The notes beneath the pieces were generated by a model. The model was not told where the DNA came from. It searched no databases and saw nothing but the letters and a program-made list of their open reading frames with translations. From Moniliella sp. 'wahieum' (taxonomy: Eukaryota): a stretch of 64,000 bases of DNA. Numbering within the stretch: the first letter of the stretch is position 1; every line of letters begins with the position of its first letter. The position numbers and the translations under genes were made by a program. This document shows, piece after piece, positions 5,823-57,058 of the stretch. The stretch covers positions 558,001 through 622,000 of the forward strand of contig RSEE01000004.1 in the NCBI GenBank assembly GCA_003971905.1, given 5' to 3'.

Positions 5823-6445
5823 GGTGCAGACGGTGGTGGTGGAAGAGGGTCGGTGGCTGGGCGGCCGGACGGCAGCAGCGGCCGAGGAACAAAATCTGAC
5901 AGTGCAGGCTTCGCGGCTGCTAGGGTTGCGTCTGGGGCGGCGCCTTGGGGGCAGTGTGAGCACTGGGCAGCCTGAGCGCTCCGGCTCAGCGCTGAGGCTC
6001 AGCACTGCGACCATCGATCCCCGACCACCTCGATCACCGTTCAACTTGAACGTTCAGAGACGCAGCCAGCGCAGCCGGGCAGGGCTAAGTGCTAAGGCGC
6101 GGGGGCACTGAGGGGCGCCTCATCGGTCGCAGCGGTGACTCGTAACCACTGGGCGACTGAGCCTCAGCGGCTCAGCGGCTCAGTGGCTCAACCAACGTTC
6201 AACGTTCAACGAGGATCGGTGCACGTGATGCGTGTGGGACGAGGTGCGATGCGGGGCACGTGACGCAGGAGAGCATGCCCACCGGCCACCCCGCACGGGC
6301 CGGCGGGCAGCGGCGCAGCAGCGCGCAGCAGCAGAGAGGCTGTGCACAAAGAAAGCTACCGCAACACGCAACAGCAGAAAGGCCGCCCTGCGCGCTATTT
6401 AACCCCCACATCGCCCCTTCCTCTCCCGGCGCCACCACGCATACG

Positions 6446-9291
6446 ATGGCCACCCGTCCCCCTGCGACCCAGCTGCCTCAGGGACAGCCGCCGTACGCAG
6501 GCGCCCCGGGCATCCTGACGCCGCTGCGTACCCACTACCTCAAGAAGGCCCTTGTTCAGCTCGAGGTCGAGCACGAGCTCGCCATCCTCAACCAGAGCAG
6601 TTAGTAGTCCGATCTCTGCTCTTTTCCTCCGTCCTTTAACCCCATCCTCTTCTCTCTGCACCTTTCCTCATCCCCAGATGCTCTCGCCGCACTCGGTGCG
6701 CCTTTTCGTCCCGTCGCTGGCGCTCCCATACACGCCGACGACTTGCCTTTGCTCCGCTTTGTTTTCCAGCGATGGGTGCTCACCTTCCCGCTTGTCAAGG
6801 ATATCTCTGCCAGCTTTTTCCCCAAAGTACAGCAGCTTGCCCAGGAATTCTATGCTCGCAACATCTCTGCCTCTGATGACCGCGAAGAGGCGAGCAAACG
6901 CCGCAAAATTGCCAACCGGGTGGAGCGCTACGTCACACTCCTATTTGCTGCTGCGATCCTTGCCAAGCCCCGCCTGGATGTGCGCCCGGTGAAGGGGAGC
7001 AGGTCGTAGAGTTAACGGACCAGGATCGCCAGGCTATCACAGCAGCCGAACAGCGGGCGTAAAGGCTGAACAAGATGCGGCTCAGTTGGCAATCAACATC
7101 ATTGCTGTCCGTCTACCCCCCTCTGCTCCCGGAACCAAGACAGACTTGGCGTACGCTCAATTCATCGTTGCCTCCAGTGCTGGAAAGGGAACGGACGAGA
7201 CCTACGTCGCTCGCTCCTATGCCGACTTTGAACATCTCAAACTCACTCTCCAACAAGAGCTCGGACCTTTAATTTGGGTGCCCGATCTCCCCCCCAAGGA
7301 CTATTCGGCCCTTGAGGAGGGAGCACGAAGTATGTTGGGTAAGTCCTTGTCGGACAAGTTTTTTGGCCTCGCCCTAGGTGGTAGTGCATCCAGCGCCAGC
7401 CCGACCAGCGGTGGCAACCCGTCGTCCCGGGATGCTTCAGGTACAGTATCATCACCCGTTCTCCCCCGGGAGGCCAACCGTCAATCGCTGCGGGCCTACC
7501 TGCGCGACTTGGCCGAGGTCCCAGCGATGCGGACCAGCAAAGCACTTGACGATTTTCTGCATGCCTCTCCGGTTCAGCTCACCGAAGCTGAGATGGAGGA
7601 CGCTTCGCTGCGGAACGAAATGGACTCACGTCGTGAGGCGGCAACAGTAGCGTTTGCCGAGGCGAGTGAAGTGCGAGCAGCAGAGTTACGGTCGCTGTTG
7701 GGGAAGCTGAAGTACGAGGTATCTCAGCCCGATGGACTAAACAAGGTGTTTTCCGTGTTTCGCACCACATCCCAGCTCAAAGATTTGCCCGAGGACTACC
7801 GTGCAATGATGGGCTGGGTCAAGATGAGCATGGCCGCTTCGCTGTACACTTCTTTTATCGGTTCGGACAATGGGAACGCTACATTTGCTTCGTTTAGCAA
7901 GATTAACTTTCTCATGCCTTACTCGCTTTTGTCGGGTGTCTTGCGCATCACCAACCCAGCAGCGATGATCAAGGGAGTGATGAACTTATTCTTGGCGCAG
8001 CCGTTGGGGAGTAAATCTTTGCTCCAAAGGATGAGCGGTGCTAGTCTGTCTGAAGGAACGAGACAGTGGCAGTCGATGGCCCAAAACGCAGCGAAGCGGA
8101 TCAACGACCCTTTGATGGTTCAAAAGTTGGCAGCCTATGTCGGGCTGCCGGCGCAGGCACGGATGCAACTCAAGACGCATGCTCAACGCGCCCGTCTCCC
8201 GCTCCCTGTGGTGGTCCTATCGAGCGCTGTTTGTGGTCCACCTTTGTCGCCTGCGCAGGCGGAGCGGGTTGACAAGGCCAGGGTATCCCGGGCCAAGGGT
8301 GAATTTACAGGACCCTCCACACTCTTGGACGATTTCCATGCGTTCATGGTGGCTCAACTCAAGATTTATGACAATGAGCAACTTGAGTCGCTGGTGACCG
8401 AGGGCATTACTGTCGACCTCTTCCGCGATCTGATTGCTATGTTTGTCACGCCCTTGGCCGAGGTGTATCGGGATGCCAATGCGTCCGACTTTGTAGGAGA
8501 CGTGCAATCGTTTTGCGATGACTTGATTCAAACCGTCAAAGCGAACCAAGATGGTAAGTCATTATCCCTGTTGTGTGATGGTCTTGGCTACTGACGATTA
8601 TCTTTCCTGCGCACCAGTCCGTTGGCAAAACCCGACGATTATGCTACAGGTGTTCCAAGATCTGGTTGGCCGTCATGAGGATGCGATCTACCGCTTCATC
8701 CATGACACTCAAGTCAAGGGTCATAGCCTCTTTGGTGGCTTGATCGACTATGCTCAGCAGTTTATCAACTTTTTGCGTGGCCAGGGCGCCAGCGCCGATG
8801 TGGCGCAACGCCAAGGGATTGGCGAGGTGGACATGGAGGCGCTGTTACCAGCCGTGGGGGACCCGCTGCGGGATGCGATTCTACGCGAGACGGATGTACT
8901 GATCAACCATGCGTACCAGGCCAAGTGGCTGCGAGAGGTACGTCTTCGCCGGCAATTGGCCGCGCAGAGTGGCCAAGGCCTGGAGGGAGACACCTTTGGT
9001 CATTCTATCCTCGGCTTCAATTCGACTACTGTGGGAGATGCGACCGAGGTTGAGGCCGCCATTGAGGCGGAGCGGTCGCCGTTTGAGAAAGGAGGTATTC
9101 CCGACCCCCGCCTTTTGCCAGAGCCAGAGCTGTTGGAGATCCCCAAACTACTGCCCCTGTTCCTTGAGCTGGTACGTTGCATTGTCTGCGTATGATATTT
9201 TGGGCGTGTTGTGCTGAGCACTGACCAACATCGCTATAACCGCGTCATGTCTGGACGGCAGGTGCGGCCCATGCTCCCGCAGCAGGCGTAA
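6446..9291 (+). CDS. PX-domain protein of the YPR097W/Lec1 type (PXB + PX + DUF3818-like)
   Basis: LTPLRTHYLKKALVQLEVEHEL and PLLRFVFQRWVLTFP; PX core VARSYADFEHLKLTLQQEL...PDLPPKD; LPREANRQSLRAYLR; NLFLAQPLGSKSLLQRM. Introns near 6600, 8555 and 9172. Confidence 0.85.
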
Positions 9292-10301
9292 AAACTCTAA
9301 GAGGAGCGTTGAGGAGGCGCAGCTGATATGGGCAAGCGCAGCTGCAAAACAGACCTGGTGGAAATTCCATGTGGTTGGGACGTCAACCCACCGGCGTATA
9401 ACAAAAAGGTTAGAGAGTAGGTCTTATAAACGGACTGTGGTCCAGTCAGGCGGTCAGTAGGCCCAGGCAAGGCAACAATTGGTAGCCGGCAACCGCCGAG
9501 GTAATCTTTACCACATGTCTGTCGGCTGCCCAATTGTGCGCGTGCTTGCTCCTGACTTGAGTTTCAATTTTCAAGCATCAAGCTTCAAGCTTCAAGCTTA
9601 GCTTGACCGGTCACCGACAAACTGATGCGACCGGATCCCCATTGCAAGCGAATCGGCAAGCAAGAACGGGAGGTCAATAGAAAGTAGAGTCGTGGAGAAG
9701 GCGGAGGAGGGGACTTGTACGCTACGACTGCCGAAGCTGTAAGATGGAGGCACGTCCGACTGCCACCCTTCCTCCCCCGGGCGGAACTAGCGGAGCCTGC
9801 CGGGGGGAAGCGGCTGGGAGCGCCAGAGTTCGGTTATGCTCTCGGCGCACTGCACTAGTGTCCCAACCAAGCAGGGTGGCCTTCTGAAGTTTTGCAGCGC
9901 ACAGCTTCACCGGTGGGCCGGGACTAGTCACTGGCGCTTCTTCTTAGAACTTAGAAGCGCCAGGCGCTCAGGGTTCGGCTGCGCCCCGGTGATAAAATGG
10001 GCTGTCTCACAGCGGCATTGCCGAAAGGGTGGCGGGCATTGGGCCGACGCTGCCCCTCCGCCCGTCTTCGCATGCATTGGTAATCGCCGGTCCAAGCCGG
10101 CACCCCACCAGTGTCCCTCCGCCTGCCCGGCAGTCCTGCTAGTCCTGTCGGCATGCGTGCTTGCCGAGGGTTATGCAAGGGGCGCAGCGAGCCATGACAA
10201 AAATCAGAGTGGCCACTTTTCTACATAAAGTGTCTGCCTACCCCAGTCAGCTGGTGTTGCGCACCGTCGACGACTACCACCTTCACTCCCCTCTCATCGC
10301 C

Positions 10302-11536: not shown

Positions 11537-11934
11537 GATGCGCAACTCGGATCCTCCTCCACGGCTTGTGTATGGGCGGCGGGTGGGGAGGATTGACTGT
11601 GCTTGGTTCGCTGCAGGCCCTTGGATCCGCCATCCGCCCTAGTATTATTGGCCAGTTGCAGTGCGCTTGTCCTGGCACTTTGTCTGGTATACCTTCCCCT
11701 CCACACTACTTGTTCCCCTCAACGTCCTCAACGTTCAACTGTCGTTTCACCGTGTTCTTCATTCGCATGAATCACTGTTAGTGGATGTGTAAGCGTGACG
11801 GATGTTGTCATAGGATACTTGTGACATGTGAGCCGGGGCAGGGCAAGCACGAAGAAGTTGACATGTCGAGATGCTGTTGGATTGGCTTCCGGGGCAATAG
11901 AAGGCAAATTTTGCTCTTCTTTCAGTACCAATCA

Positions 11935-16074: not shown

Positions 16075-16257
16075 GTCAACCTGGTGACCGGTGATCGCTG
16101 ACTAGCAAAGTGTGATTACGGGGTCTGATTCCGACACGACAGACGAGGGGATAACGATGGCTGTCACTTGCATGTCACTGCCGCTATCACGGGGGCAGGC
16201 TGGGTGGTGCCTCTTCGTGATACCATGAAGTCTTGCATAGCTTGTTGCGGGGTATAA

Positions 16258-19259: not shown

Positions 19260-19888
19260 GGCTTGCTGGCTGCTGCTAGTCTCTGCCGGCGTCCGGCCCG
19301 GCCGAGGAGGAAACGCCAGCGCAGTTCCGCTGGGCGGAATGGGATGGGCCCAGCAAGCCGAGGATGCCGCTCAGGCGCTCAGGCTGATCGATGATCTGAG
19401 CCGCGCTCAGCTGGCCGAGGCCCCCCGCTTGCACCGACTCGCGGCCCAGCCGCCCGAGCCGGCACAGGGGCAGTGGAGTCTGGGAGTACGTGTGACATGT
19501 GGCATGTGTCATCTGACGGATGCATGACGCATGACGCATGATGCATGATCAACCAACCCATGCCGCACGAGTGCGCTGCTGGCGCTCGCTAATCGCGCGC
19601 TAATCGAGCTAATCATTCTCGACGCGGACCTTCTTGAAATGAACATTCGATAGCCCCCCCGCGCACGGCCCTTGCATGCGGCCTCCGGCCTTCTCCGGCC
19701 GCTTGCTCGGCTTGGCCGCCGAGTGGCTTCAAGCTTGACTACAAGCTTCACTAGTCAGTCCACCGAGTAGCTCGTCTCTCCCTCGCCCGCCCAACGCCGC
19801 CTCGCACGACAGCCCCCAGCAGCTCACCCAGCGTCGCAAAAAGAAGCCACCCCCCGCTCCCACGCTCTCCGCCCCCCTCGCCCCCACC

Positions 19889-22884: not shown

Positions 22885-23189
22885 ACCTACGCCCCGCTAC
22901 AGTCTCGACCGGCTTAGTTGCACCAGAAATACACCCCTTCACCATTTCCATCTACATGGAACTTACAATTTGCCCCCACCCCCATCCGCACCCCGGCGAA
23001 TGCATCTGGCTGTGCGCCTGGGACTGGGCCCCGGTTTTGGCTGTAGCACGACAGAGAGAGCTGTACTCCTGTTGCTAGTTATATATACGACCGCCTCCCA
23101 AGCAGCACAGGGCCAGTGGACGGCGTTGCGCCCGCCGGCATGCATATGAAGCACGGCGCTAGTTTCCGGGCTGTGACGTGGGAGGGGAG

Positions 23190-23220
23190 TGACTAGTGAC
23201 TAGTGACTAGTGACTAGTGA
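23190..23220. repeat. (TGACTAG)4-TGA tandem, member of the TSA-palindrome motif family
   Basis: Read directly from the sequence. Confidence 0.95.
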
Positions 23221-23811
23221 CGAGTGGGCGGCTGAGCAGAGCGCACCGTCCTTTAGTCCAACGAGAAGCATGGAGACGTCGCCACCTCCGCCGGCTAAAT
23301 GTGGGTGGTGGGCGGTGGAGTGGAGCGGAGGGGGCTGAGCGCGCTCAGAGCTCAGCGTGAGCGCTGAGCCTCATCACCTGCCCGCAGCAGCTGGGGACGG
23401 CAGCAAGGGACGGAGGCGCTGTTGTTGGCGGGCTCGGAGCATGCTGCACTGCTCGGATGCCCACCGGCGAATGGGCGATGCAGTGCCACGGCTCTTGCTC
23501 ACATTAGTACCACGCCGCTCCTGAGAAAATATACTCTGCTCCGCCCCCTAGCCTGCATTTCCTACTAACTTTTCCATATGCGTCCACCCCATCCGTTCCA
23601 CCCTTAACGGCATACCCCGCGCCTTCCTCTCCTCCACTCGGCCGTGCACTCCTCTCTCCTTTCCTCCGGGCCCGTGCGCCTCTCTGCAGGCGCCACAGTG
23701 GGCTGGGTTCTCTCTCGTCAAAAATGCAGTGGTCTTCATGGTATGATGTGGTATAGTCTCTTCTGATTGCGACATAATTTTACCCACCACATACAATAGC
23801 TTATTTTGGTG

Positions 23812-32016: not shown

Positions 32017-33987
32017 GGTACCGGCAACTCAGATCGATACTGAGTCAGACCAGCGTATGGACCTGTTGGGCACCCCGAAACGTTCTGTCCGACTGACAGT
32101 GATAGGGGATGTTACAACCCTGGCTCTTGCTCATGACCCGTCGGCTGCTTGCCGTCGTGGCCGTCCCTTCTGGGGGCGTATCAGCGAGCAGGCCCCGTCT
32201 ACTCGCACTGACTAGCGAGGAGCAGCCTAAGTGGGTGGATGCGCCGCTCTAGTCCAGGGACACATGAATTTCGATGTTATGACTCTGCCGAAGCGTATGA
32301 CGCGTGCTTTTGCTTCCTCGCCTCTGACACCCCTGGTGCATGGTCCCGAGCAAAAAGATCCGTTGGCTGTTCTTCGCGCTGGCTGCAGGGCATCCGTACT
32401 CGTTTGGCCACCATTTATCACGACTTTGCTTCGATCTTGGCCGGCACAATGGAGGTGCCGCCGGGGGTGCACTCTCAGATCGTTGGGCAACTAATGACGC
32501 TGGTGTCGCCTGCCCTCGCGGCCTACATTTCGCGCCTAGCCACCACAAACGTCTCCCGGGATTCTTTACTCGGTTCCGGACTTCTTGTCGTGCTTGTTCG
32601 CGGAAGTGCGCCTTTCTACACCAAGCGTCTCTGAACTACAGCTGTCGGTGCGCCAGATGGAATGGGATCCCAATGCAGAACCGGCTTCTACGGCCCTGAC
32701 GCGCTGGCTCGATTCAATCCAGGTTTTGACCCTCTTGGGGTACTCCACTTATTGGGACCCTGCACGTGATGTCCAGTTTGGAGGCCCTTTTCCGGCGTGG
32801 TGATTCGTATCGGCCGCTGATTTTCGCAGGGCTACCTCCCGGACAGCGTGTGACCGTGGCACATGTCAATTCTGTCTTGGGGGACTTGCAGTCGTTGGCC
32901 CGGGCCAACTTCGTCATGGAGTATAACCGGATTGCGTCCATCTCGGTGCCTACGGTTGAATCTTTGGCTGTTGATTCTCTACCCCACCCGTTAATTCGGG
33001 GACCACGGGACTGCTGGGAACGTAGACATGTCTCTTGCATCGCAGCTAGGAGCGATGGGGCTCGCGGCTGTCTGCTGGAATTTCCGCCAGCCTGGCATAT
33101 CGCTGCCAACTGCCCGGCGCCGCGTCAGGACAACCGCATTTCTAACCGTGGTACGTCAGGATGGAATCGCACCCTCCCTGGGCCAGGATGGAACGCGAAT
33201 CCAACCGTGCGCCCCCCGCAGCAGCATGCTGTTGCGCGTGTGCTTCAAGCCTTGGCGCACAGTTTGACGATAATGGACCTGTCCGTACCAGAGGAGGATG
33301 GCCTGCCTGCCGCGGGGGTTCGATGATATCGAATAGGGGTGGCGCGGGGTGAGGCGCTCATTATGCTCGCAGAGGACTTGTTGAGCGCATTGTCTACGAC
33401 TCGCCCAGGACGCGCCCCCCTTATTTCCCCCCTTTTGTCTTCTTCCCTTCAGCTTGCTTGAATGACTTGTGGCTGACTGCCCGCCTTCTTGCACGTCTTG
33501 AAGCTCATTTCTTGTGCTGCCATAGCGTTTCCCAGCTGCAGTCTAGCACTACAGACTTCTGTTGCCACACTATACGTTAGCATCACTATCGACATCATCG
33601 ATGCATCAGTATCGGTCTTTAAGCTTCAAGGTTCACGGGTTCCGGTTATACCAGGTTATACTACCGGGCGGGACTCCAGGTATCGATCGTAACCGCGGAG
33701 AAGGGGGGAAGCTTCCTTTTGGTGTCGACCCATGGTGGGGTGGCTCGTGCATTTTTGCCCCAAAGGTTCTTTTGGACTTTCCCTCTTTTCACTGGCCACA
33801 AGCTCCAAAAGGAACTCCGATGTTCTCGCTGCTATTTGCCTCGTTTCGCAGCTATGGGGTCGGTGGCGAATGGGCGCTTGAGTACTCACTGAGTCCCTAT
33901 ATACATGTCTTTGGTATATCACACCACCACCACTATATATAGTGCTGGAGTGCTGCATCTCAGGTGGTCCTGGAGGACTGCCAGGCG

Positions 33988-34326
33988 TCACGCGTCAGGC
34001 CCGTCAGGCCCTCTCAGGTCTCAGGACCCGACTGCGTAGGGATTAGTCTCAGATCTCATCGAGTGAGGGACTAGTGACTAGTGACTAGTGACCGGTGACC
34101 ACTAAGTGACTAGTGGCTATTATAGCGACTCTCCTATTGAGAAAGATCTTTTCGGCTCTCAGTTTCACACGCTCCCTCTCAGATCTCATGTCGAAACGAC
34201 GACCTCCGAAGTCCCCAGGCCTCAGCCTGAGGCTTGAAGCTTGAAGCTTGACCGGCTGACCTCAGGGCCTGAGCCTCAGGAGCGTCAGGATCAATTGCAT
34301 CCAATGGCATGATGCATGATGCATGA
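33988..34326. repeat. Dense cluster of T[CG]A-palindrome-T[CG]A micro-repeats
   Basis: TCACGCGTCA; TCAGATCTCA twice; TGACTAGTGACTAGTGACCGGTGA; TGAAGCTTGAAGCTTGA; TGATGCATGATGCATGA. Confidence 0.9.
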
Positions 34327-34944
34327 TGCCTCCTGTGAAGAAAATGTCTCGTATGTAATACTCTGCCGGATGCCCTCGACCGCGGGAAGAGAGAGGCCAG
34401 TTTGGCCTTGTTATCTTCGATCCACAGCGTGTTGGGTCTACGTGAATGAGGCTGTGGCTGCCGCGTGCCGGCTGGCCAGAAGCGGGGATTAGGCGCTTGT
34501 GGGAGGGGAGATAGAAGGAGGCATGCTTGGACGCAGGCCGGATATAGTGCTGTATGAAGATGATGACGCGCGTTAATATGATTGGTCGGTGGCGAAGATC
34601 TCTCTCGATCGACGGTCTGGCTTCGGTGCCTACCGCCGGACCCTAGTTTGTGCTTACATAGCGGCCGTTGCGACGATGGAGTAGTGAATGGGAGGCAGGA
34701 CTCGGGTATTCAGCACGCCGTGCTCGGGCTGTATCCAGGCTTTTGGCCCCAGGGGGAGCAGCACTGGGGCGGTTGCTGGTGTGGCTGGTCGGCTGGCTGG
34801 CGGAGTTCGACTGCGGGATCGGTGCAACGGATGGGAGGGGGGGGGGCGAGGGGTGCTGCTGGCGGCCGACGTGTGGGCCGAGCGTATGGCGTGGTGGTGG
34901 TGATCGGTGTGCATCATCGCTGATCGACGTCCCTCGCTCGGCCG

Positions 34945-40950: not shown

Positions 40951-41086
40951 CCACGTGGCTTGCGCCTGGCCGCTGCCTCTCCACCTGCAACGATGCACCA
41001 TTGAACGTCTGGGTCTTGTGGGTGCGTTGGGTGGGAAGGCGAGAAACGTAAGAGTAATAGCCAGGAGAGCACTTATCTATCCACCG

Positions 41087-42957: not shown

Positions 42958-43699
42958 GGTCTCGGGCCGGCTGCGAGTGGTAGTGGAGGGGGGGAGGTGG
43001 TAGCGGGAGAGAAAGAAGAGGTTGAGACGTGGTAAACGCGGTGAGAAGCGGGCTGATAGGGTGACCAGTGAGGGATCGATATAGGAAGGAGTGGGTGAGC
43101 GTGTGAGCGCTGCTGACTGATTTACGGACACTGGAGATCGAGAACTCGGAACTGACTTGAATTAGTTCAGTATTGAGTGAGCGTGACGCGTGACGCGTGA
43201 CGAGCTTGTTGAGCCCTCGGATGTGCTGGGGAAATTATCACAGCACACTCGTCCTGAGCCTTCCGCCTTATGTCCAACGGTTAACAATGTGACCGGTGAC
43301 GGACCGGTGACCTCGCCTGTCATGCATATCGAAGGCGTTTGCTGACATGACGTCACTTCGACAGCACTTGTGTGGCAACGGGCGTTACATCAGTGTCATG
43401 GTGAGAGGATGTCAGAGCCGATCTCAGAGGGTTTATTAGTTCGGTACAGTGTCTGAGTACTGAGTCTCGCTCGAGACCTGTCGGGCCCTGAGGCCTGAGG
43501 CGGCCTCAGGGTCAGTCGCTAGTCCCTCACTACCTCACTCCGTCATGAGTACTGAGTACTGAGTCATCCAATATGACTTCACCATCACGGTGCACGCGTC
43601 CAATTGATCGAAATCTGAAGCTCTTGAAGCTTGAAGCTCCATGCTCAAAGCTCCAAGAGCCTCAAGGTGCGTCTTTTGAGCAGGTTATTTCGCACCCAA

Positions 43700-46600: not shown

Positions 46601-46700
46601 TCAAACGACTGCCGAAGCCCTGTTGGAAGTGTGGAGTAATGTGAGTCAGATTGCCCTATTCAGGATAGGAAAAGGAATATCGGAAAGGAATGCATCGAAG
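43700..46700 (-). CDS. Probable multi-exon hypothetical gene, fragmented
   Basis: Protein-like minus-strand pieces (e.g. QKQREAEIAARLAERK...EEVTEEDELF). No recognisable domain; boundaries are guesses. Confidence 0.3.
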
Positions 46701-47172
46701 GCAATCGGGCTTGATGGGCTCTACCGATACCACAGCTCCAATGTGGCACCACAGTCGGGGCGCTTGCTGGGGATTTACTACTAGTTGTGTGCATTGCCCC
46801 CCCCCCCCACCTCGCTCGACCACCGACGATTCCAGACCGCCGTACCGGCTTAGAACCGTTTCGGCCCGGGTTGCATGTAGCAGCAGCCGTGCAAGTCTTA
46901 CTGCCGTTGTCCAACTGGGTTAAGAACAGTTGGATGTGTTACAGCGTAGTCCGTCTCGTGTTTTTCCCCCTCAAAATCTAGACACGTAATAGGACAAAAT
47001 GAGAATCTATCGGAGCACACTTGAGAGGTGTGGAGGAGGCAGGGCCCTGAACAGCCCTGCCAGACAACAGGGTACTTGCAGAAACCAAAGATGTGGTCAC
47101 ATTAAGAAACCAAAAGAGAAAACAAATGGGGGGTTGTCGGGGGATTGGGGAGAGAGTACGTCAAACAACGTC

Positions 47173-48110: not shown

Positions 48111-50145
48111 ATGGGAGTTGAAAGGATGGGCGGAAGCCGGTGTGCACGTCTCACGCACACACGACGTGCGGCGAGCCGAGTTGAGCACCAGCAGTTGTGG
48201 GCGGACGTAGTCGGCCAGCCAAGTGGAGTGGGTGGCTGGTGGCGCCCCGTGGGCCAGCAAGGGTGGGGATGCAGGGTGCTCGATGTACTTGCCGGGTTGG
48301 GTGCGGACAACATGGGGACGGTGAGCGTGGTTGGGAGGCGCACGGAGGAGGGATTGGCTGGGGCGAACAAAGCAAAGGGAGAGTGGTGGCAGAGGAAAGG
48401 AAAGAGGGTGTGTGGCACAAGGCGGCTCTGATCGCTGGAAAGCGAAGTTACTGTCTAGCTGAGGGAGCAGGTGCGGTTGAGGCGTGCGGGTGGCCAGGGG
48501 TGGCCTTTGAGGCAGTCGTGTGGGATGGACGGATGGACAGATGGACAGATGGGGGCGGGTGGATGATGCACACAGGCGCCGATGCGCAGGCGAGTGCCCC
48601 CCCGCCAGTGTGGAGCCTGATCTGACCATACCCGCCGTGCGCCAGTGTGATTCGCCGCACGCAGGCGGGCAGTCGTGGCGGGGCAGTGAGGCGTGAGGCG
48701 TGCGGCGCCAGTGCCGCGCCCGGCCAGTGCGCCGCTAGTGCGCCCCCGTTCGGCATCCAGAACCGCCGCCCCGCTGTCTGCGCTCAAGCGCTCAACTTGG
48801 GCCCAGGCACAGGGTGGCACCCTGGCCGCCGGCTTTACGCGGGGTGCCTGCAGGAGCCCGCACAGCACCACACTGGCGGGCGATGTTTATAAGTGTACAT
48901 CACCTGAGGCACACTGCCGCTGTGCACGCGCTCGGGAGGATTTGCGCGCCCGCATAGAGGCAGTGTGCCAACGCCGCGGCATGGCGCCAGGCGCCTCTGT
49001 TGATGTCACATGTCATCGATCATCGGCCCGCAGCGGGGCATGGTGCTGTGCGGGTGCAGCGCAGAACAGACAGACAGAGGTGTAAACAGATGGATGAAGA
49101 GAAGGAACTAGAGCGGAATCCGCCGGACGGGAAACGGAACCCGGGCGGAATCACCCGGGAGCCCGTGCCCGTCCGCACAGGTGCATGGCAGGGCAGGGCA
49201 TGGCACTGGCACTGGCACTGGCGAGGCTGGCACCGCAGCGCATGCCTGAGCCTCTGGCCGCATGGTGGGCACACTGCCCCAGTGCAAGCACCATGGCGGA
49301 TCCTCGCAGCGCGCAGCTGCTCAGCGGCTCAGCGCCCAGGCCAAGCACAGCCTACGCGCTGACGCGCCCACATGCACCACAGCAGCCCACAGCGCGTCAG
49401 CACCCAACACCCACCCAACACCCCCAAAAACACCCAACACCAAATACCTAGCACGCGCCGCCCTACCCATGCGAACCCCAAAGGGTCCGAACAGTGCTAG
49501 TGCTGGCACTCAGCGTACTCAGTAACTCAACAACTTCACACGTTCAACGTGTTCAACGTTGGTCAACTCGTCGATCAACTCACACTGCCTTCTTTTGCAC
49601 ACTGGCCTCAATCAAGTCATCCGCACGCCCTCTCCACCAGTAACAGTATAGGATTGGTTACCTCTCTCTCTTGTATTTACTCTGCAGCTTTTTCTCTATC
49701 AACGTCCCCCCCACACGCGTTTTTGCCTCCCACGGAGACGTGTAGCATCGTGGTTTTTGATGTCTCGATTCCCGCAGAGAGCCGCCGGAGACGTCGAAAC
49801 TTCTTTTGCATACATGTGGGTGTGGGAGGGCGAACTGGAGCCCAACCCATGCCAGGTTACTAGGGCTGCTTGCCCTTATTGGAGGCGGAAGGCCCACTCA
49901 CGGTGTATCGAGCTTGAACGCTATTGGTAGTTATAGAGGTCTCAAAGCCCCAAAGTGTGTGCATGATAGTAGCGTGTAGCGTGTTTCAGATAATAAGTAG
50001 GAAAGGGGAGATAGAGATGCTTCGAGCAATCTTCTTGTCGAAAGTAGTGGCGAGACCTAAACGCACAACAATATGATGAAGGACAGATAGTAAAAACAGT
50101 CAGGACGGGCCGGTGATGGGGGATGGGAAGGCGCAAAAATAGGCA

Positions 50146-53100
50146 TTACATCTCCACAGAAACGAATAACGTCGTTACTGCCCAAATTCGTTTCAGGGCC
50201 GAGAAGAGGGGAGATGATGGTCCCGTCAAAAGTCCACGCCCGAGTCGGACTCTTCTGGAATCCAGAGCAGTTCCTTTCCTCCCGTCGAAAACGAAGGCGA
50301 CATGTGGAGGGTCTGAGAGCCAAGGAAATGACTTAACCCGCAAGACGTCCGTGGCGGCATCTTTCACTTCCGCAAGTGTCAAGGGAGCCCTGCCCGAGAA
50401 CAAAATGTCGGTGGCAATGGGAAGTGCTGGCTCCAGGTCAAGCAAGGAAGTCATGGCCAATGACTGGGGAGGGACAGCACCCGCTAAACTGCGCCGCAAG
50501 GCAAACGTTTGAGTCAAGAGAGCAGACGAATGGAACCAGCTTGTGTGAAGATGGTCTTGTTTGCACCCAGTGTACGCAGTAACAGGAGCCACTGGAGAGC
50601 AGCGGTGGCAAGGGAGAGCACGCTCCTGTCGTCCGCCAGTCCTTCTCCAACCGACTCAGGCTCAGGAAATGAGAAGGAGCGTTCGCCCCAAATCAGCTCG
50701 ACGCAAGCCATTGCGGCCGGTCGAGCACCCAACATGGAAGAGCCTGCTTCAAGAGCGGTCACCAACGGATGGGTCAGTGACCTGGCCAGGGGCAGATCGG
50801 CGCGCATGAAGGCCCATGCCGCAAGCGTGATCTGGGCTAGATAGCTGGCGGGTGTATTGTGCACAGCAAGTGAGCTGGTGGTATCGAGCAGCTGTTGCAC
50901 CCATTCCCGTGTCTCCACCGCGCTAGGGCAAGCAGAAGTGGCCACCTCGATGGTGATCAAGCCTAATTCTTGCCGGCAAAAGAATTCTCGCAAAAACGAA
51001 TTCACGTCCAGGCCGCTCACGTTCGACACCTGCTCCGATGGAAGTTGGTCTTCCTCCTCTGCTTGGTCCAGATTAGAGCAGTCCATCTCTCTCTCTCTCT
51101 GGGCACGCGCTCCAAACGTTGTCGGACTCGAGGCGGCAACAATGTGGGGGAAGAGATACACCCATGCCTGGTAAAGAGAGGCCATGTGCATAGTGTTGGA
51201 AACAAGCAGTAAAGGTGAACCAAGGTACGCCCGAATTTCTGAATCGCCCCCAGCGGCTGCCCTGAAGGTGTCCCCCTCAGGGGGACATAGGGCCAGGGCG
51301 TCCTCCAACGGATAGGAAAGTAGATGCCTCTGCCACGGTTGGCTGGCTGTGCCATTGCCTGCGCCTGAACCCAATGGGAATGGGCATACGTGCGGGCCAC
51401 ACGACCCACAGCATTGGTCGGTGAGCCGAGGCGGCCGAGAGCGAGGGCCAAAAGCATGTGGGTACGTGCGCTGATATCATCGGACAGTTCATCCGACTCG
51501 ATCCCTGTTGGCTCCTCCGCCTGGTCCAAAGCAGTTGCGATCCGAGCTACGTGTAACACGGTGTGCATACGGGATGAGAGGGAGCACTGAACAAAGGGGC
51601 CCCACGCAGTCTCCACCTCCAGCAACCGAACCCATGCATCCGCGCGGGCACAGTCGACATAATTGGCGAGCAGTTGAGGGCGTCGATTGGGAGGCAGCGA
51701 TGGAGAGGAAAGAGCTGCACATTTTGCTAGCTCGACAAGATCACGAACCAAGTCAACCCGGAGCTCACTGGGCCAGTGGATGCATCCACAAAGGAACGAA
51801 GCGCATGCTCCATTTCTGCTGGACTAGTGAGGGGCGGCCATTACTTTCTCCAGCTCAGTACGGCGATGGTGGAGCAAGCGGAGAGAAGACAGCTCCTTTG
51901 CCTGCTTTCCCGTGGCTTGGACACGTAGACGTCTGTTTGACCAGCGTGCGATAAACGGAGTAGAGAACAAAGACGACGCAAGACGAAAAGGCCACGAAAC
52001 GAGCTACCTCAATCAACAAGGTTACCACGGGCAAATGGTCGTAGTGGTGTGTGGCTGTAGAAGGAACAACCGAGACACGCCTCAAGAGTTGGTGGCCCGC
52101 ACTGGCAGCCATGGCTCCAGGATGGGTCCCAACTTGGGGGTGGTCCAAGTCCGAGGACCTAGTGACCAAAAGTAAGACCCAAAAAGGCAGCCATCACATA
52201 CGAGCCCGACTGGGAACACTTGGGGCCGGCATCGACTCGGGGGAAGAGCCGGATGACATATCTTCGTCCGTGTCCATGACAAGGTCGGCCATGACGTCCT
52301 CTGCTTTGTCTTCTTCTTTGATGGGCATCAGAGCATCGAGCCTTCTCAGCTTCACGTTCCCTTCGACTCTGTTCCATCTCGTGCATCCAAACCAGCAAAA
52401 CATCCTCCCGCCTTGGAGGGAGCGGATGAGCTCCTTCAAGCCTCAGCTCGGACGACAACTCGGTCTCACGCCGTTTGAGGTGGTGGATGTACTCGGTCGC
52501 TTGCTCAAAATGGGCTTTGTTCAGTCGGGTTGCAGCACTCACACCATCGACCAAGTCCTCGGGCTCCCCCTTCTTGCGAGGCTTGCGAGGCAAGAGCGAG
52601 GTGGACCCTCCGTTGTTCTTGGGCTCCAAGTTGCGCGGGCGGGTACGGCGGCACGCAGGGTAGCAATGCGGTCATTGATATTGTTGCGATAGCGCCGTTC
52701 AATCGCGTTATGAGGCACCTTGTTGAAGGGGTCAGTCGGTTCCGAGGGTTTCTTACGTGCCCGACGCCGAGCCTTTTCGGCCACGGTGCCCGCCTCTTCC
52801 TTGGGCCAAAGGGATTCGATCGGCTGGCTGGCCTGTCGGATCAGTCTAGTTTGCTGGAGGTATTGTAGCTGAGACATTACCGAAGCCACATTTTCAAATG
52901 CTGAGAGGCAACAGCGGTCAGTACTCGGTACATGCGCAATTGTAGACCCATCATCATCGATCCTAATGGATTGGAGAGGGTGTGGGACGAAAAAAAAAAC
53001 GTACAGTTCGGCTGAAGGATGTTCCACTTGTCTGTTCGTTCGTCCAACTTGATCATTTCTTTGGCATGCAAGGCAAGCTTGTGCGCCAAGGATGTTTCTG

Positions 53101-54271
53101 ATGTAACCCTTTTGCTGGGTCCCCTTCTGCCAGCGACCTGGCATTGGAATGTCGCATGGCCAAATCCTTCGGTGTCCCGTCCAAGGTCGCAGCACGTCCA
53201 CGACTGTGTCGGATAGGCCCGTGCCGCCCGAAGCCTCATCACTCATTCGTTCTTTACTCGACTCCGGGGGCAAGCAGTTGGTCCGATGCAGGCGGCGAAG
53301 TCGGGACTTTACATTGGCTGGCCCGGCGAGGGCCAGTGGAGTCAGAGCGGGTTCGGAGGCGGCATGGCATCAGCCAGACCTGGCTGCCAAAATGCTGCCG
53401 GGGGCGCCGAGGCGCCTGCACCTGACAAGACTGCCGGCAGTTGTGGTGGGAAGGCAATGGGATGCGGTAGCCCCATTGTCCAGCTGCCACACTAATATTC
53501 ATGCTTGCCAAGTAGGCGGGAGGAGCGTAGCAAAAGGGTCCGGCGGCAGAGAAGGGGAGGTTGGGGGCAACCGGTCCATTGACCTCGGTGTAGGTGGGAT
53601 GCTAAGGATGCAGATGGTGCCAAGCTTGAGCTGCTCCTGGCATTGCTGCGTTTGCAATGCGGGAAGGAAAAAGGATACGGCGATGGGCTCTGTTGGGGCC
53701 CCTCTGCGCGGGCAGACGTGGCCCGAATGTGTAGGAGGGACGCAACATTGATGTCCATCGGTGGGGCATCTTGAATCCCCTGGCCTGGAGGAAGAGCATT
53801 GTGAATGACTCGGGGCCGGCCGATGGCCCGACGTATACTGACTCGGGGGCGAGTCGGTGCCATAGGCAGACACGCCGGGTGTGCTAAAGTTGGATGTACG
53901 TCGGGCCGTGGTGGAGATGTGGAGGGTACTGGTGGACTGAGGCAGGAGGGCGGGCTGTGTGGTGGGGCGCAACCGGGGGATGACGGGAAGAGCATCGCTT
54001 GGAACGTGGAGCGCGGCGCCAGGCTGGATGGGCGACACTGACGCCGAGAGCGAGGCAGCCTGTGCGAGAGCAGGTGGGGAGACGGCGGTAGTATTGGCAA
54101 CAGCAGTGGGCGGCGAGGGCGTAGGGTTGGCAGTTGCACTGGCATCTGCATTTGGGCTGGCGTTGTTGTTGGCGAGGGGAGCGCTGTTGAGATACATGAG
54201 GCGTGGGGGTCAAAGACTGGCGGCGGTGTGGTGGGCGTGCCCAGGCCACCGGGATGGGGCGGTGGTGACAT
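50146..54271 (-). CDS. SRE1: SREBP-type bHLH transcription factor
   Basis: KVPHNAIERRYRNNINDRIATLRAAVPA has the SREBP-diagnostic Tyr; DGVSAATRLNKA...ATEYIHHLKRRE; hydrophobic segments near 52170 and 51990; long helical C-terminus. Confidence 0.9.
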
Positions 54272-55182
54272 GCGGGCGGCTGGTGGCAGCAAGAGAAGGC
54301 GACGGCGTAGTAGCAGGGAAGCGGGTGGGAGTGGAGTAGGTGGCGTAGAACGGGAAGGAAGAGACGGAGAAGCGGTGGCGTGGTGGCGGCCGAGCAAGCC
54401 GAGGGCCTACCTGTCTTGCTGCGTCTGAGTCGCTCGAAAAGGGGCGGCAAGACTGAGACCAGTTGCGTACTGAGACTGGGTATCGGGAGGCTGGCGGCCG
54501 AGTATAAAACTGTGATAGCCCACACTGGCCCGCTGCCGGGTTTATCCACAGCGGACAGCTGCTATTTGCGAGTGCTATACGGCCTGCTACGGCTTGCTAC
54601 GGCAGGCCCCATAGCATGCAACACGCACCAAGGGCATCCGTCCCAGCTCCCGCGACCCTGGATGCTGAGTCGCTGACACACCGATGCAGAGATTGGCAGT
54701 TACGTGTGACGTACAACGCGGTTACCCTGTCCGCATGGCGAGGGGCAGTCGAAGCGCTGAGCATGCTCAGCGGTTCTGGCCCCCAGAGGTGTTCTGGTAG
54801 ATCGATGCTATTTCTCCGACCTCCCAATTCTACCCCCTGCTTGCTTGCTCTCTTGGCCATCTGTCTGATGCCCATCACTCAGCCAGCACTCAGTACTACT
54901 CAGTAGTACCCAGTACTCAGTTACTCAGTAGTACTCTCAGACATTAGTATCAGTCTGAGTACTGAGACTCAGTATTACTCTTCAGTGTATCGGCGCCAGC
55001 GCAACACTGGCGTTACAGGGGGTTAGACCTGTTGCCGCGTTCCCTTACTTTTTACATGCCGTCGGCCCCTCGCACGTGCGTGGGCCGGGCCATTCCTCTC
55101 AGCCATTCCATCCGTCGTACAACGCGTAACGCGTAACGGCCAGCGGCCATCAGCACTCAGCCTGAGCGTTTCCCCATGGCCC

Positions 55183-55222
55183 CTGAGCGCCTGAGCGCCT
55201 GAGCGCCTGAGCGCCTGAGCGC
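55183..55222. repeat. (CTGAGCGC)5 tandem
   Basis: Read directly; lies within a TGA/TCA-rich cluster. Confidence 0.95.
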
Positions 55223-57058
55223 CTCAGGGAGACATGGGATCTGTGAGATCTGAGATCGGAGAGTGAATATTGAATTGCCATGCATAATGCTACTGTCACA
55301 TTGTCACCGGCCATGTGTACGTGGAGGGTTGGCGCTGGTTATTCTGGTTGTTTGGCTGCATAGGCGCTAGGTCCCAGGTTGGGTGCCGGCGGAATATCTC
55401 TTAGACTGACGCAAAGCTCGGGGCGATCTGCGCCGTGCACAGGACAGGAAACGGCTGGGCTGGGCGAAGTGGCCAAAATCGCATGACTTTGGAGGTGTCG
55501 TGTCGAGAGCAGCACAGAGCTCTATCCCCCCGCACACCCCTGCCGCACTGCCCACCTGCCTCTCATCCGCTCGGGTTTTCCCGGATATGCCATGTTTCAA
55601 ATTGCAATCGTCCGCGATGCATCATCGATCCATGATTAATGATTCTCGACTGTAGCCGCCCCATCGGCCTCACGGACGCATACCAACAGCTGCATGTACG
55701 AATCCACCCTGTTCGAACCTCTTCAGCGCATCGAGCTTGGGCTCCCAGCTCCCCAGGCCCACACCCGTCATCCAGCCCTCGAAACTCACTTCAGAGCTTC
55801 CGAGGGCCAGGCCTCTCACAGCGGGACTCTCACACGTCACACCTCCGTCACGCCCGCAACGTTGGCTGTGACATGTGAAGCCTGAGGCTCAGGCGCTCAG
55901 GCCTGAGGCGTTGTTGCATGTGAGCGCGTGAAGGCGCCAAGAGCTGCTGAGCGCGCGCTGAGCCCCAGCCAATGGCAACCGGTACCTTCCCCACGATTCA
56001 AGTTCTGACGCGGATGCCTGTCAGAGAGTCAGTAGTCAGAAGCGGGTCGGCACATCTTGTTGCTCCGCGTTCCCTCTCCTCCACCTCCGGCAAGTTCCTT
56101 TTTAGGGAAGGAGAGGCGATGATGGTGGTCGCATTCTAAAGAGGAGACCGTCAGGGGCTCAACATATGGAGAGTCGCGTAGAACAGTGTGGAAGGGAGGT
56201 GATTTGTCAGATCTGCTTACGCGCTGACACTTTTTGCACTAACTGAGAGTGTCACCATGTCACTACTGTTGCACGGTGGATCTTGAATTCCATGATGTGG
56301 TTTCCGTACCGTAGGTCTCTCGAGAGAGAGACTGCGCACAACAGACGGAAGCAGGAAATGTCCCGCACTGTGAAGGGGGCATTTCTCCCACTCAATACGC
56401 AGATATTCAGGCCTTTCTTGTGCTGTGATGTGCATGATGGCGATGGTCATTGTCACAATCGGGGCTAAGGCGAGGGAGACCAGAATCGGGACTAGGCCAA
56501 GGGGTGTAGCAACCGTTCGTGAGGAAGAAGCAAGAACAGAGGGAGGACATGGTGCGAAGTGGAAGAAACAGGGAAAGGAAAGAGCTAGACGCTCGGGACG
56601 AAGAAACTGGAAATGGGAGTGAGATCAGTCAAACTATATGATGGAGACATCCCGGGTTGTCGAAAAAGGCCAGTTCATTCAACAGTTCTGCCTTGATCAA
56701 CTGCGGATCAAGATGAGACGGTCCAGGTAACAATCGCCCCCCCTCTCTTGATTTGTGTATAATGGCGAATTGCTGGCGGGTCGTGTTACAGTCGCTACTA
56801 AGAAGTCGAACTTGTGCAAGGCCATGGGTACATCCTCACAAGACTTTCTTCCGAAAAGGCAGTAGAACCACTGTCGCCCTTTCAACGTCTAGGTGGTCCT
56901 CTGGCTCCAACGCGCTCAAAGAGCTTCTCGGATACCGTATTGGTTTTGTCTTCATATATACTAGCAGTCAACCCCTACAGCGAAATGTCGTTACATTCCA
57001 CGTGGTGGAACGGAGGAGGAACTTCTTCCACAAATATAGCCGTGGATGACCTTGTGAG

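Follow-up and report, generated by a model that had tools for sequence, protein, structure and literature searches.

TCA/TGA-centred palindromic units in promoter-side DNA of Moniliella sp. 'wahieum': probable excision footprints of a DNA transposon

In the 64-kb stretch of contig RSEE01000004.1 analysed here (the window), TCA and TGA triplets (TSA, S being C or G) recur in intergenic DNA, joined by short self-complementary spacers. What kind of process would write symmetry into a spacer whose sequence differs from site to site?

Enrichment and core specificity of the units

We counted every T[CG]A-N4-T[CG]A string in the window and observed that 46 of 95 have a self-complementary N4. All 40 starts listed in a first-pass annotation proved to be exact units of this kind, and our count added six, at 11728, 11822, 19385, 33879, 55633 and 59014. 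In 100 dinucleotide-preserving shuffles of the window, palindromic units averaged 3.84 (maximum 9), in agreement with the earlier expectation of about 4 per 64 kb. When tandem copies were collapsed, 37 palindromic loci remained, and the palindromic fraction (37/86) was far off 1/16, the figure against which the pattern was to be judged. Shuffling of the cluster regions alone (5887 bp) gave 0.23 direct loci, compared with 26 observed. The enrichment of TSA–palindrome–TSA units is real and very strong. The 13 palindromic tetramers reported as spacers were all borne out, the full count being 14 of 16 across the 46 units (AATT and TATA are missing), and the longer spacers GCGCGC (23336), GCATGC (54758) and GCGCGCGC (55948) were also confirmed.

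The effect is specific for the core. Among direct same-core pairs, 40 of 74 were palindromic for TCA/TGA, and 76 of 1529 (5%) for all other trinucleotides. With strands collapsed, the flank pair TCA..TCA was found around a palindromic N4 40 times and the runner-up pair 12 times, while inverted pairs (TCA..TGA or TGA..TCA) made up only 6 of the 46 units. By core, 23 loci belonged to TCA/TGA, 2 to TAA/TTA and at most 4 to any other. Repeats containing TSA were enriched only at periods 7 (40/141 runs) and 8 (20/86); the values at periods 5, 6, 9 and 10 were 7/97, 3/138, 13/142 and 9/88, respectively. The window as a whole has no general richness in palindromes: even palindromes with arms of at least 5 numbered 74, against ~62 calculated for equiprobable bases. 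Palindromy is not general to such repeats either, because at most 20 of 496 spacers were palindromic in 124 metagenome loci of the form (TGA-N4)x4-TGA.

Composition of the unit and its distribution along the window

The elementary unit is a 12-mer, either TSA-de-e'd'-TSA-de or the mirror form ab-TSA-b'a'ab-TSA. It is a duplicated 7-bp site, ab-TSA-de, in which two of the junction bases give way to the reverse complement of the pair beside them. At 27 of the 31 direct TSA-pal4-TSA loci the period-7 match runs on for at least 2 nt on at least one side (right 11, left 11, both 5, neither 4), and therefore the unit is 12 bases or longer; by our own arithmetic, such an extension on one side is expected by chance in about 12%. 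The 12-mer form occurred at 23 loci, compared with 0.19 in shuffles (loci collapsed at 30 bp, 100 dinucleotide shuffles). Thus, of the earlier proposal that symmetry is constrained and spacer sequence arbitrary, the first part holds and the second does not: the two bases that flank TSA recur in each spacer, directly in one half and as their reverse complement in the other.

The period-8 and period-9 units follow the same rule, being full 7-bp duplications with one or two additional junction bases that complement the adjacent end in 10/10 loci. A single base separates the two 7-bp sites at seven loci and is complementary to its neighbour in 7/7 (otherwise 0); two bases separate them at three loci and are reverse-complementary in 3/3 (otherwise 0). 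Non-palindromic exact 7-bp duplications centred on TSA were found at 2 loci only. Products of +7 bp dominate, and deletions were not enriched (k = 2: 52 observed versus 65.8 in shuffles). Four direct and six inverted loci fall outside the simple 2+2 scheme. The strict units (n = 53) account for 387 inserted bases, as inferred from this scheme, and cover 478 bp of the clusters, which total 5887 bp. The clusters, which have no strand of their own, and their main contents are as follows.

5975..6211: cluster of putative scars between the divergent MAS20 (Tom20) gene (4790-5785, minus strand) and a PX/DUF3818 gene (plus strand)
6163-6190: period-8 array CTCAGCGG, in the same cluster
6193-6211: CAACGTT array, in the same cluster
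9564..9613: cluster of putative scars in the gap from the PX gene's 3' end to the following plus-strand gene (VIT1); repeated TCAAGCT, then TGACCGGTCA
11717..11831: cluster of putative scars nested on the single target CCTCAAC
11717-11734: 7-bp site + GT + 7-bp site (period 9), in the same cluster
11728-11739: TCAAC-GT-TCAAC (period 7), in the same cluster
11820-11831: TGTGA-CA-TGTGA, in the same cluster
16083..16101: single putative scar GGTGA-CC-GGTGA, upstream of ORF 15026-15955 (minus strand)
19368..19757: cluster between divergent ORFs 18466-19209 (minus) and 19755-20276 (plus); CGCTCAGG x2 (period 8), TGATC-GA-TGATC, a TGA(C/T)GCA array, TCAAGCTTGA and TCACTAGTCA
23188..23373: cluster with the longest period-7 array, AGTGACT in ~4.9 copies (23188-23221)
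23358-23369: TGAGC-GC-TGAGC, in the same cluster
33879..34329: richest cluster; TCTCAGATCTCA x2, AGCTTGA and GCATGAT arrays
33985-34011: cg-TCA-cgcg-TCA-gg-cc-cg-TCA-gg, in the same cluster
34069-34100: ag-TGA-ctag-TGA-ctag-TGA-ccgg-TGA-cc, in the same cluster
43095..43639: cluster upstream of the aldo/keto reductase gene (41807-43121, minus strand); GTGACGC, TGACCGGTGAC, TGAGTAC, CCTGAGG and TGAAGCT units
43525-43539: period-8 unit CCTCACT-A-CCTCACT, in the same cluster
48780..49559: cluster with period-8 and period-9 units at 48780, 49319, 49508 and 49542
49003-49025: tg-TCA-catg-TCA-tcga-TCA-tc, in the same cluster; both outcomes from the single target TGTCATC
54753..55961: largest cluster, upstream of an HLH-domain gene (minus strand); also TGAGATC, TGAATAT, TGATTAA, TGACATG and TCAGGCC units
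54755-54772: 18-bp perfect palindrome, in the same cluster
54914-54929: TACTCAGT x2, in the same cluster
55121-55138: TAA-core unit AACGCGT x2.6, in the same cluster
55182-55224: CCTGAGCG x5.4, a 7-bp site with one complementary base, in the same cluster

In the mixed arrays (33985-34011, 34069-34100 and 49003-49025), spacers of the left type come first and those of the right type follow, a single 7-mer being the source of both; at 34069-34100 that ancestral site is AGTGACC.

The clusters sit in gaps adjoining the 5' ends of ORFs backed by Pfam or codon bias, and none in the window lies clearly between convergent genes, as judged from the ORFs so supported. None of the 46 units falls inside a Pfam-matched ORF segment; the placement reported earlier (intergenic, mostly 5'-flanking) is upheld. 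The unit at 59014, at the end of an ORF supported by codon bias, has no flank extension and is therefore probably a chance occurrence.

A possible origin in transposon excision, and its rivals

The grammar is that of a target-site duplication with P nucleotides, as left by cut-and-paste transposons whose excision closes the flanks as hairpins (hAT, MULE, Transib), on the 7-bp target nnT(C/G)Ann. From the observed grammar and its statistics we infer a cut-and-paste DNA transposon, a hairpin intermediate and the repair steps, and we consider it probable that the units are excision footprints, that is, donor-site scars, of such an element. The element would insert into promoter DNA with few nucleosomes, at nnT(C/G)Ann, duplicating 7 bp; upon excision, the transposase would close each flank as a covalent hairpin. 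A host nuclease would cut each hairpin 1–2 nt off the tip, so that the terminal flank bases return as their reverse complement (P nucleotides), and the donor site would then be closed by end joining. If both hairpins are opened 2 nt off the tip and each 3' overhang is joined to the opposite recessed 5' end, the product would be ab-TSA-de-e'd'-TSA-de or ab-TSA-b'a'ab-TSA-de, a gain of 7 bp that reads as TSA–palindrome–TSA. Off-tip opening on one side would give +8 (7-bp site and one P base) or +9 (7-bp site and two P bases). As each scar would make a second copy of the target, repeated insertion and excision, possibly with slippage, could build the homogeneous 7- and 8-bp arrays.

Excision would explain why the palindromes have no loop, since opened covalent hairpins are expected to leave none, and a deterministic rule of this kind would also set the left-before-right order in the mixed arrays. 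The TCA/TGA specificity fits the target preference of an enzyme. An origin of the inserted bases from element ends is excluded, because the junction bases covary with the local flank. Of the two causes suggested at first pass, the data favour a transposase-footprint process at TSA sites. If the units are the excision scars that they resemble, they record heavy transposon traffic through promoters, and they probably do not represent a novel signal. No prior description of the pattern was found in open-access literature text, as the annotation had supposed.

Several points count against a transposon. Neither a structure of terminal inverted repeats with a duplication in the 64-kb window nor a transposase domain in 130 ORFs of at least 140 aa or in 9 ATG-started ORFs of at least 250 aa was found. 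To our knowledge, the density of the units in the window is far above any known for footprints, and the product spectrum, with +7 dominant, is unusually uniform for excision footprints. A 7-bp target with central TSA was documented in none of the transposon families checked, and a search of the PMC12730594 supplement yielded no target consensus for elements that make 7-bp duplications.

One rival is a hairpin-forming enzyme of the host itself, such as a domesticated transposase, which would cut nnTSAnn sites in promoters again and again, no mobile element being involved; repair would give identical junctions. The same P-nucleotide grammar is expected, no element was found within the 64 kb, and the very high, promoter-restricted density would be attained more readily by a resident enzyme; Kat1, a domesticated fungal hAT transposase, makes hairpin-capped breaks (PMC4763223). 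However, hairpin formation alone does not produce a 7-bp duplication; that a site is duplicated directly and to a constant length is the hallmark of DNA inserted by staggered strand transfer. Exact duplications free of P bases are confined to the 2 loci noted above, and therefore a simple route of staggered cut and fill-in also misfits. We regard such an enzyme as unlikely.

That the units are selected cis-elements, either hairpin/cruciform signals or arrays of binding sites (e.g. bZIP-like TGA half-sites) in core promoters, is still more doubtful. Their restriction to promoter-side DNA would suit selection, and perfect units (40) outnumber decayed ones (a half-palindromic excess of roughly 12), a surplus that could reflect recent activity or selection. 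The longest array (z = -5.75) and the 18-bp palindrome (z = -4.16) fold far better than shuffles, but only these do; single units and short arrays have no such advantage (z = +0.05, -0.57, +0.33, -0.29 and +0.35), which makes the hairpin/cruciform signal proposed earlier unlikely. A cruciform would favour inverted cores, contrary to their scarcity here, and a binding site would constrain sequence, yet the 14 spacers show no preference. Selection also leaves unexplained the flank-copied half of each spacer and the always-complementary extra base of period-8 units. The data support the earlier judgement that the pattern does not belong with ordinary transcription-factor motifs or plain microsatellites.

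We give little credence to replication slippage, by which 7-mers that happen to be hairpin-prone would expand as microsatellites. Tandem Repeats Finder reported many period-7 and period-8 arrays of 2–5.6 copies in the window, and arrays already present may well gain copies in this way. However, slippage yields exact copies, and at 22 of the 31 loci the repeat continues in one flank only, so the inserted 7 bp hold two bases templated only in reverse complement. The rarity of non-palindromic exact duplications and the non-palindromic period-7 TGA arrays of the metagenome loci also speak against it.

Equally hard to credit is iterative fold-back (snap-back, hairpin-primed) synthesis at breaks, which the annotation had put forward. 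Two symmetry centres, 3.5 bp from each other, do alternate along the arrays, and six loci are true 10-bp palindromes, with two longer palindromes also present. However, fold-back centred on the spacer predicts TCA..TGA, whereas 40 of 46 units are direct, and snap-back priming requires an unpaired loop, which the palindromes lack. Neither the fixed 7-bp direct duplication nor the TSA specificity is accounted for.

An assembly or base-calling artefact is very unlikely: the units are only intergenic, the flank-dependent rule differs site by site, and no type of sequencing error known to us would write two flank bases as their reverse complement beside a 5-bp duplication.

Comparison with known systems

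Putative excision scars of the kind proposed here can be set beside several systems. Alike in duplication length are two fungal DNA transposons, hAT7 of the Pucciniales and the KDZ-group element Kyakuja of the Agaricomycotina, which make 7-bp target duplications (PMC12730594). The superfamily of hAT7 uses flank hairpins; no such element or transposase was found in the window. In placement the units resemble T1 of Cryptococcus deneoformans, which goes near-exclusively into intergenic DNA (89% of insertions), close to start sites (34/41 intergenic insertions within 200 bp) and into divergent or tandem gaps, with 0 between convergent genes (PMC9942834). T1 integration sites have no conserved residues and no common motif (PMC9942834), in contrast to the fixed TSA centre here, and footprints go unmentioned in the account of T1 used for this comparison.

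In mechanism, hAT, Transib, MULE and RAG hairpin the flanking DNA, the hairpin step being common to RAG, Transib and hAT, and end joining leaves footprints (PMC5499845). Footprints of hAT elements (Ac/Ds, Hermes) keep the target duplication on both sides (PMC5873905, PMC5499845) and carry junction bases that repeat the neighbouring flank as its inverted complement; these P nucleotides derive from flank hairpins that have been opened. A few products predominate in a given host; with Ac/Ds in Candida albicans, footprints consist either of short deletions or of inserted palindromic P nucleotides, and two products predominate (PMC5873905). The classical hAT duplication, however, is 8 bp with consensus nTnnnnAn (PMC10512250), compared with 7 bp and a central T-S-A in the window. 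Furthermore, hAT footprints are single experimental events, whereas the scars proposed here occur naturally and at very high density, and are strung together in arrays.

Coding joints of V(D)J recombination, made by the Transib relative RAG, share the loop-free palindromic additions of 1–2 nt from hairpins opened off-tip. Artemis opens these hairpins 2 nt from the tip, and the target duplications of Transib are 5 bp. V(D)J joints differ in having no target duplication, in their dedicated signal sequences and in being confined to lymphocytes.

Tc1/mariner footprints are also short pseudo-palindromic scars between direct target copies, canonically TA, bases of the element end and TA. In those footprints the inserted bases are constant and come from the element ends, whereas in the window they covary with the local flank.

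Palindromic spacers between T[CG]A cores

The window (G+C ~57%) is fungal nuclear DNA, and the occurrence in it of units in which two T[CG]A triplets (TSA) enclose a palindrome is real and striking. The 40 start positions proposed in the first-pass annotation all proved to be exact T[CG]A-N4-T[CG]A units whose N4 is its own reverse complement. We found six further ones, so that 46 of the 95 T[CG]A-N4-T[CG]A occurrences have palindromic spacers, which use 14 of the 16 palindromic tetramers. In dinucleotide-preserving shuffles (n = 100), the mean number of such units was 3.84 and the maximum was 9. When tandem copies were collapsed, 37 loci were obtained. The non-palindromic TSA-N4-TSA occurrences (n = 49) were spread window-wide at about the background level. 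For other spacer lengths, the observed versus shuffled numbers of palindromic spacers were 14 versus 15.2 (k = 2), 26 versus 16.9 (k = 3), 10 versus 4.6 (k = 5) and 3 versus 1.0 (k = 6).

We observed that the flank pair TCA..TCA occurred 40 times around palindromic tetramers (strand-collapsed), compared with 12 times for the runner-up. Spacers were palindromic in 40 of the 74 direct same-core pairs of TCA/TGA, whereas for other cores this was the case in only 76 of 1529 (5%). By spacer symmetry, the direct TCA/TGA pairs comprised 40 perfect, 11 inner-only and 9 outer-only cases and 14 with neither; the corresponding values for the other cores were 5%, 16%, 18% and 61%. Perfect units far outnumber decayed ones, which points to activity that is recent or still ongoing, or else to some selection.

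The evidence comes from the 64-kb window, from a single metagenome control and from the literature. The control comprised 124 metagenome loci having (TGA-N4)x4-TGA; palindromes made up no more than 20 of their 496 spacers, and 112 loci had none. Palindromy is therefore not a general property of such repeats. Two metagenome loci, L061 and L092, bear a superficial likeness to the units but are apparently bacterial. A 363-bp metagenome contig, L088, has at 300-345 the series TCA-gggc / TCA-ggcc x3 / TCA-ggct, resembling the units of the window.

Structure of the elementary unit

Upon extending the period-7 identity around each locus, we obtained a typical single-unit length of 12-13 nt, and not 10 (for example TCAAC-GT-TCAAC, TGATC-GA-TGATC, TGTGA-CA-TGTGA and GGTGA-CC-GGTGA). 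A period-7 unit is a direct repeat of a TSA-containing 5-nt block, and its two copies are separated by the reverse complement of the TSA-distal 2 nt of the block. Of the direct loci (n = 31), rightward extension (TSA-de-e'd'-TSA-de; primes denote complements) was seen at 11, leftward extension (ab-TSA-b'a'ab-TSA) at 11, extension to both sides at five and to neither at four. This flank rule fits 27 of the 31 loci, whereas a 2-nt extension on either side is expected by chance in ~12% (by arithmetic). The mirror class with the inverted bases adjoining TSA (TCA-nn-GA-TCA) was absent.

Of the periods compared (5-10), only two showed an enrichment of TSA-containing repeats, namely 7 (40 of 141 runs) and 8 (20 of 86); the values for periods 5, 6, 9 and 10 were 7/97, 3/138, 13/142 and 9/88, respectively. 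Examples of period 8 are TAC-TCA-GT x2, CC-TCA-CT + A + CC-TCA-CT, GC-TCA-GG + C + GC-TCA-GG and CC-TGA-GC + G x5.4, and those of period 9 are CC-TCA-AC + GT + CC-TCA-AC and CG-TCA-GG + CC + CG-TCA-GG. As these period-8 and period-9 units (10 loci) repeat the full 7-mer ab-TSA-de with one or two additional junction bases, we concluded that the length of the direct repeat is 7 bp, of which the period-7 units (23 collapsed loci) repeat five. At all 10 loci with one or two inserted bases, these were P bases, i.e. the reverse complement of the flank end, and at none were they of another type.

Pattern counts, loci collapsed at 30 bp, compared with 100 shuffles
12-mer, right or left form: 23 loci; shuffle mean 0.19
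7-mer + 1 base, complementary to its neighbour: 7 loci; shuffle mean 0.05
7-mer + 1 base, other: 0 loci; shuffle mean 0.13
7-mer + 2 bases, reverse complement of the neighbouring two: 3 loci; shuffle mean 0.02
7-mer + 2 bases, other: 0 loci; shuffle mean 0.04
Exact 7-bp duplication, non-palindromic spacer: 2 loci; shuffle mean 0.12

When the cluster DNA alone (5887 bp) was shuffled, 0.23 direct loci were obtained versus 26 observed. No other trinucleotide core gave more than 4 loci, and most of these were the same arrays in rotated form. With TAA/TTA cores, 2 loci were obtained, though these cores are one-third as frequent as TCA/TGA. At 55121-55138, AACGCGT x2.6 follows the same grammar around a TAA core (TAA-cgcg-TAA-cg), and because of this array the target centre may be T-N-A with a strong C/G preference.

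Clusters and their gene context

The 53 strict units cover 478 bp, include 387 inferred inserted bases and lie in ten clusters totalling 5887 bp, so that the excision-scar candidates make up ~8% of the cluster-region DNA. The density of TSA was 46 per kb within the clusters versus 27 per kb outside. The clusters occupy ORF-poor gaps and, on our approximate gene map (Pfam and a rough self-trained codon-bias map), none of the ten lies clearly between convergent genes.

Candidate scar clusters and their flanks
5975-6211: between divergent ORFs
9564-9613: between same-strand genes
11717-11831: between same-strand genes
16083: adjoins the 5' end of an ORF
19368-19757: between divergent ORFs
23188-23373: ambiguous flanks
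33879-34329: ambiguous flanks
43095-43639: adjoins the 5' end of an ORF
48780-49559: adjoins the 5' end of an ORF
54753-55961: adjoins the 5' end of an ORF

Genes assigned by Pfam
4790-5785, minus strand: MAS20/Tom20
6161-9192, plus strand: PX/DUF3818 protein
10824-11450, plus strand: VIT1
17693-18475, minus strand: PHD-finger protein
36103-36888, plus strand: protein kinase
40427-41119, plus strand: UCH
41807-43121, minus strand: aldo/keto reductase
52542-53369, minus strand: HLH protein
59989-60417, minus strand: Ctf8
60724-63598, minus strand: SOG2

The MAS20, SOG2 and DUF3818/PX domains mark the source as a fungus. A protein search with the DUF3818 ORF gave a single distant match (35% identity), and a metagenome locus search found no relative of this PX protein. 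The region 43700-47100 has a lower G+C (~52%), few supported ORFs and no scars, in contrast to the adjoining scar-rich gap 43095-43639.

The window also has repeats of other kinds. A long ORF without a Pfam match at 24486-25931 (plus strand) is made of 15-nt and 45-nt repeats (GCTGCCCAGACGGCT, ~14 copies) and encodes an Ala/Gln/Thr-rich repeat protein. A tandem duplication of ~1.39 kb spans 29360-31946 (one 10-mer recurs at 29642 and 31029, 1387 bp apart), each copy having a 20-bp array, AGTATGCCGATTGTGGCGGT x4, at 30209-30288 and 31590-31669, respectively, as well as 16-18-bp arrays of CACAGGGACAGTGAGCA. Long tracts rich in G or C homopolymers form distant inverted repeats (34829-34851, 37864-37905, 42777-42799), (GAGAGGC)n is repeated ~18 times at 34947-35071, and an exact 48-bp tandem duplication (41087-41182; 2.0 copies, 97% matches) directly follows the UCH-domain ORF.

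Probable excision footprints, competing explanations and known systems

A fixed-length direct duplication flanks the junction, the one or two inverted junction bases are loop-free and match the reverse complement of the flank end, and two mirror outcomes are equally frequent; together, these constitute the known signature of a target duplication (TSD) retained after excision through flank hairpins. The grammar of the sequence suggests that the units are probably excision footprints of a putative transposon with the 7-bp target nnTSAnn, formed via flank hairpins and P nucleotides. In the first-pass annotation, footprints of a transposase at TSA sites had been offered as an alternative, and they are the best explanation. 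Passages of PMC5499845 describe hAT, Transib, MULE and RAG enzymes as forming flank hairpins, the joining of which leaves footprints. For Ac/Ds in Candida albicans, the relevant part of PMC5873905 describes short deletions or palindromic P-nucleotide insertions centred on the element-adjoining base, with two predominant products.

We infer the following stepwise scheme of hairpin opening and joining. Opening of both hairpins of ab-TSA-de at 2 nt off the tip would leave 3' overhangs that are 4-nt palindromes, de-e'd' and b'a'-ab, and the joining of either overhang to the opposite recessed 5' end would yield exactly the two period-7 forms. Off-tip opening at one side alone would yield the +8 and +9 forms. 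Artemis-type nucleases preferentially cut 2 nt from the hairpin tip. The scheme predicts that every spacer of an array would come from one ancestral 7-mer, with left-type spacers lying to the left of right-type ones, and both predictions hold in the three mixed arrays.

Mixed arrays
33985-34011: cg-TCA-cgcg-TCA-gg-cc-cg-TCA-gg
34069-34100: ag-TGA-ctag-TGA-ctag-TGA-ccgg-TGA-cc
49003-49025: tg-TCA-catg-TCA-tcga-TCA-tc

As each scar would recreate the target, arrays could grow by repeated hits, perhaps with slippage too, as in AGTGACT x4.9 (23188-23221).

The weak points of the footprint explanation are a scar density far beyond that of the footprints known to us and a very uniform product spectrum. 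Deletions were not in excess (k = 2; 52 observed versus 65.8 shuffled). The simple scheme leaves out four direct loci and six inverted ones; to arise in this way, the latter would require longer P tracts, such as are reported for Ac/Ds in S. cerevisiae in a section of PMC5873905. The longest perfect palindrome of the window (18 bp, 54755-54772, CGCTGAGCA-TGCTCAGCG), located in the largest scar cluster, is also outside the scheme because its centre is 3 nt, not 2, from TSA. We found no TIR-plus-duplication structure in the window, in which only six pairs, weak and unconvincing, were obtained by searching for direct repeats (3, 5, 7 and 8 bp) that have inverted inner flanks. The best 25 (longest) of 87 inverted repeats were low-complexity or coding, and no transposase domain was present among the 139 ORFs scanned, all of at least 140 aa.

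It is possible that a resident hairpin-forming enzyme acted with no mobile element, but such an enzyme alone does not account for the 7-bp duplication. We consider it improbable that the scars, instead of being relics of a selfish element, are made by a resident, promoter-targeted hairpin-forming recombinase (a domesticated transposase or a tiny non-autonomous partner) that repeatedly inserts and excises at nnTSAnn in nucleosome-free DNA. In that case, core promoters would be built and tuned by an inbuilt source of 7-9-bp length variation, the mechanistic counterpart in a fungus of V(D)J junctional diversification.

Selection for a hairpin or cruciform signal, also suggested earlier, is not supported. 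Strong folding relative to shuffles was confined to the longest array (z = -5.75) and the 18-bp palindrome (z = -4.16, as DNA), and that of the CCTGAGCG array was marginal (z = -2.0). Five of the eight segments tested fold like shuffles, namely three single units (z = +0.05, -0.57 and +0.33) and two short arrays (z = -0.29 and +0.35). Inverted core pairs account for only 6 of the 46 units, and the 74 even palindromes with arms of at least 5 in the window, versus ~62 expected (by arithmetic, equiprobable bases), indicate no general palindrome enrichment.

Slippage at a micro- or minisatellite would yield exact copies, and this does not fit 22 of the 31 loci: here, a single flank continues the repeat, and two of the seven inserted bases are templated solely in reverse complement. 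Duplication of pre-existing palindromic 7-mers was ruled out, as both-sided extension was seen at only 5 of the 31 loci. The AP-1 and CRE consensus sequences are bZIP sites with TGA half-sites, but arrays of such transcription-factor sites do not agree with 14 different tetramer spacers and no flank preference beyond TSA. Fold-back synthesis, the mechanism originally preferred, predicts inverted cores and a loop, neither of which is present.

Among other duplication schemes, a 5-bp TSAnn duplication (Transib-like) leaves the one-sidedness unexplained, as the TCAnnGA-TCA class is missing, and does not account for the 7-nt repeats in units of period 8 and period 9. A 4-bp palindromic duplication with a TSA scar was ruled out, the single loci being TSA-pal4-TSA and not pal4-TSA-pal4. 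Footprints of element ends (Tc1/mariner or PIF/Harbinger type) do not agree with the use of 14 different spacers and are excluded by the covariation of inserted bases and local flank, which also rules out a 3-bp TSA duplication with two bases of each element end.

Our search of open-access papers and bioRxiv, which included the literal array sequences, yielded no earlier account of units that have a palindromic spacer and are centred on TSA, nor of footprints lying densely in fungal promoters. What we describe is probably a known mechanism in an undescribed, unusually dense form. If the footprint explanation is true, sequence alone would disclose the target (7 bp, nnTSAnn), excision chemistry (flank hairpins) and insertion preference (promoters) of an unseen transposon, and also the hairpin-opening habit of the host (mostly 2 nt off the tip). 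Excision scars would then be a measurable share of promoter DNA. As a target that renews itself can be hit again and again, they could also give rise to 7-9-bp tandem arrays. This would provide an origin for promoter minisatellites and regulatory length variation of which the literature searched gave no description. The grammar of site, P bases and site would serve as a simple genome-wide scanner to date and count past transposition in any genome.

A precedent for targeting such as the clusters suggest is the Cryptococcus DNA transposon T1: according to a portion of PMC9942834, 89% of its insertions are intergenic, and of these 34 out of 41 fall no more than 200 bp from a start site, with none between convergent genes. 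For Hermes, PMC10512250 cites Gangadharan et al. 2010. A classical hAT element was rejected on the length and the consensus of the duplication, which is 8 bp with nTnnnnAn according to a passage of PMC10512250, whereas that of the window is 7 bp and has T and A two positions apart at its centre. The units of the window share the 7-bp target duplication with hAT7 of Pucciniales and with Kyakuja of Agaricomycotina (termini 5'-CA..TG-3', no TIRs), as described in part of PMC12730594.
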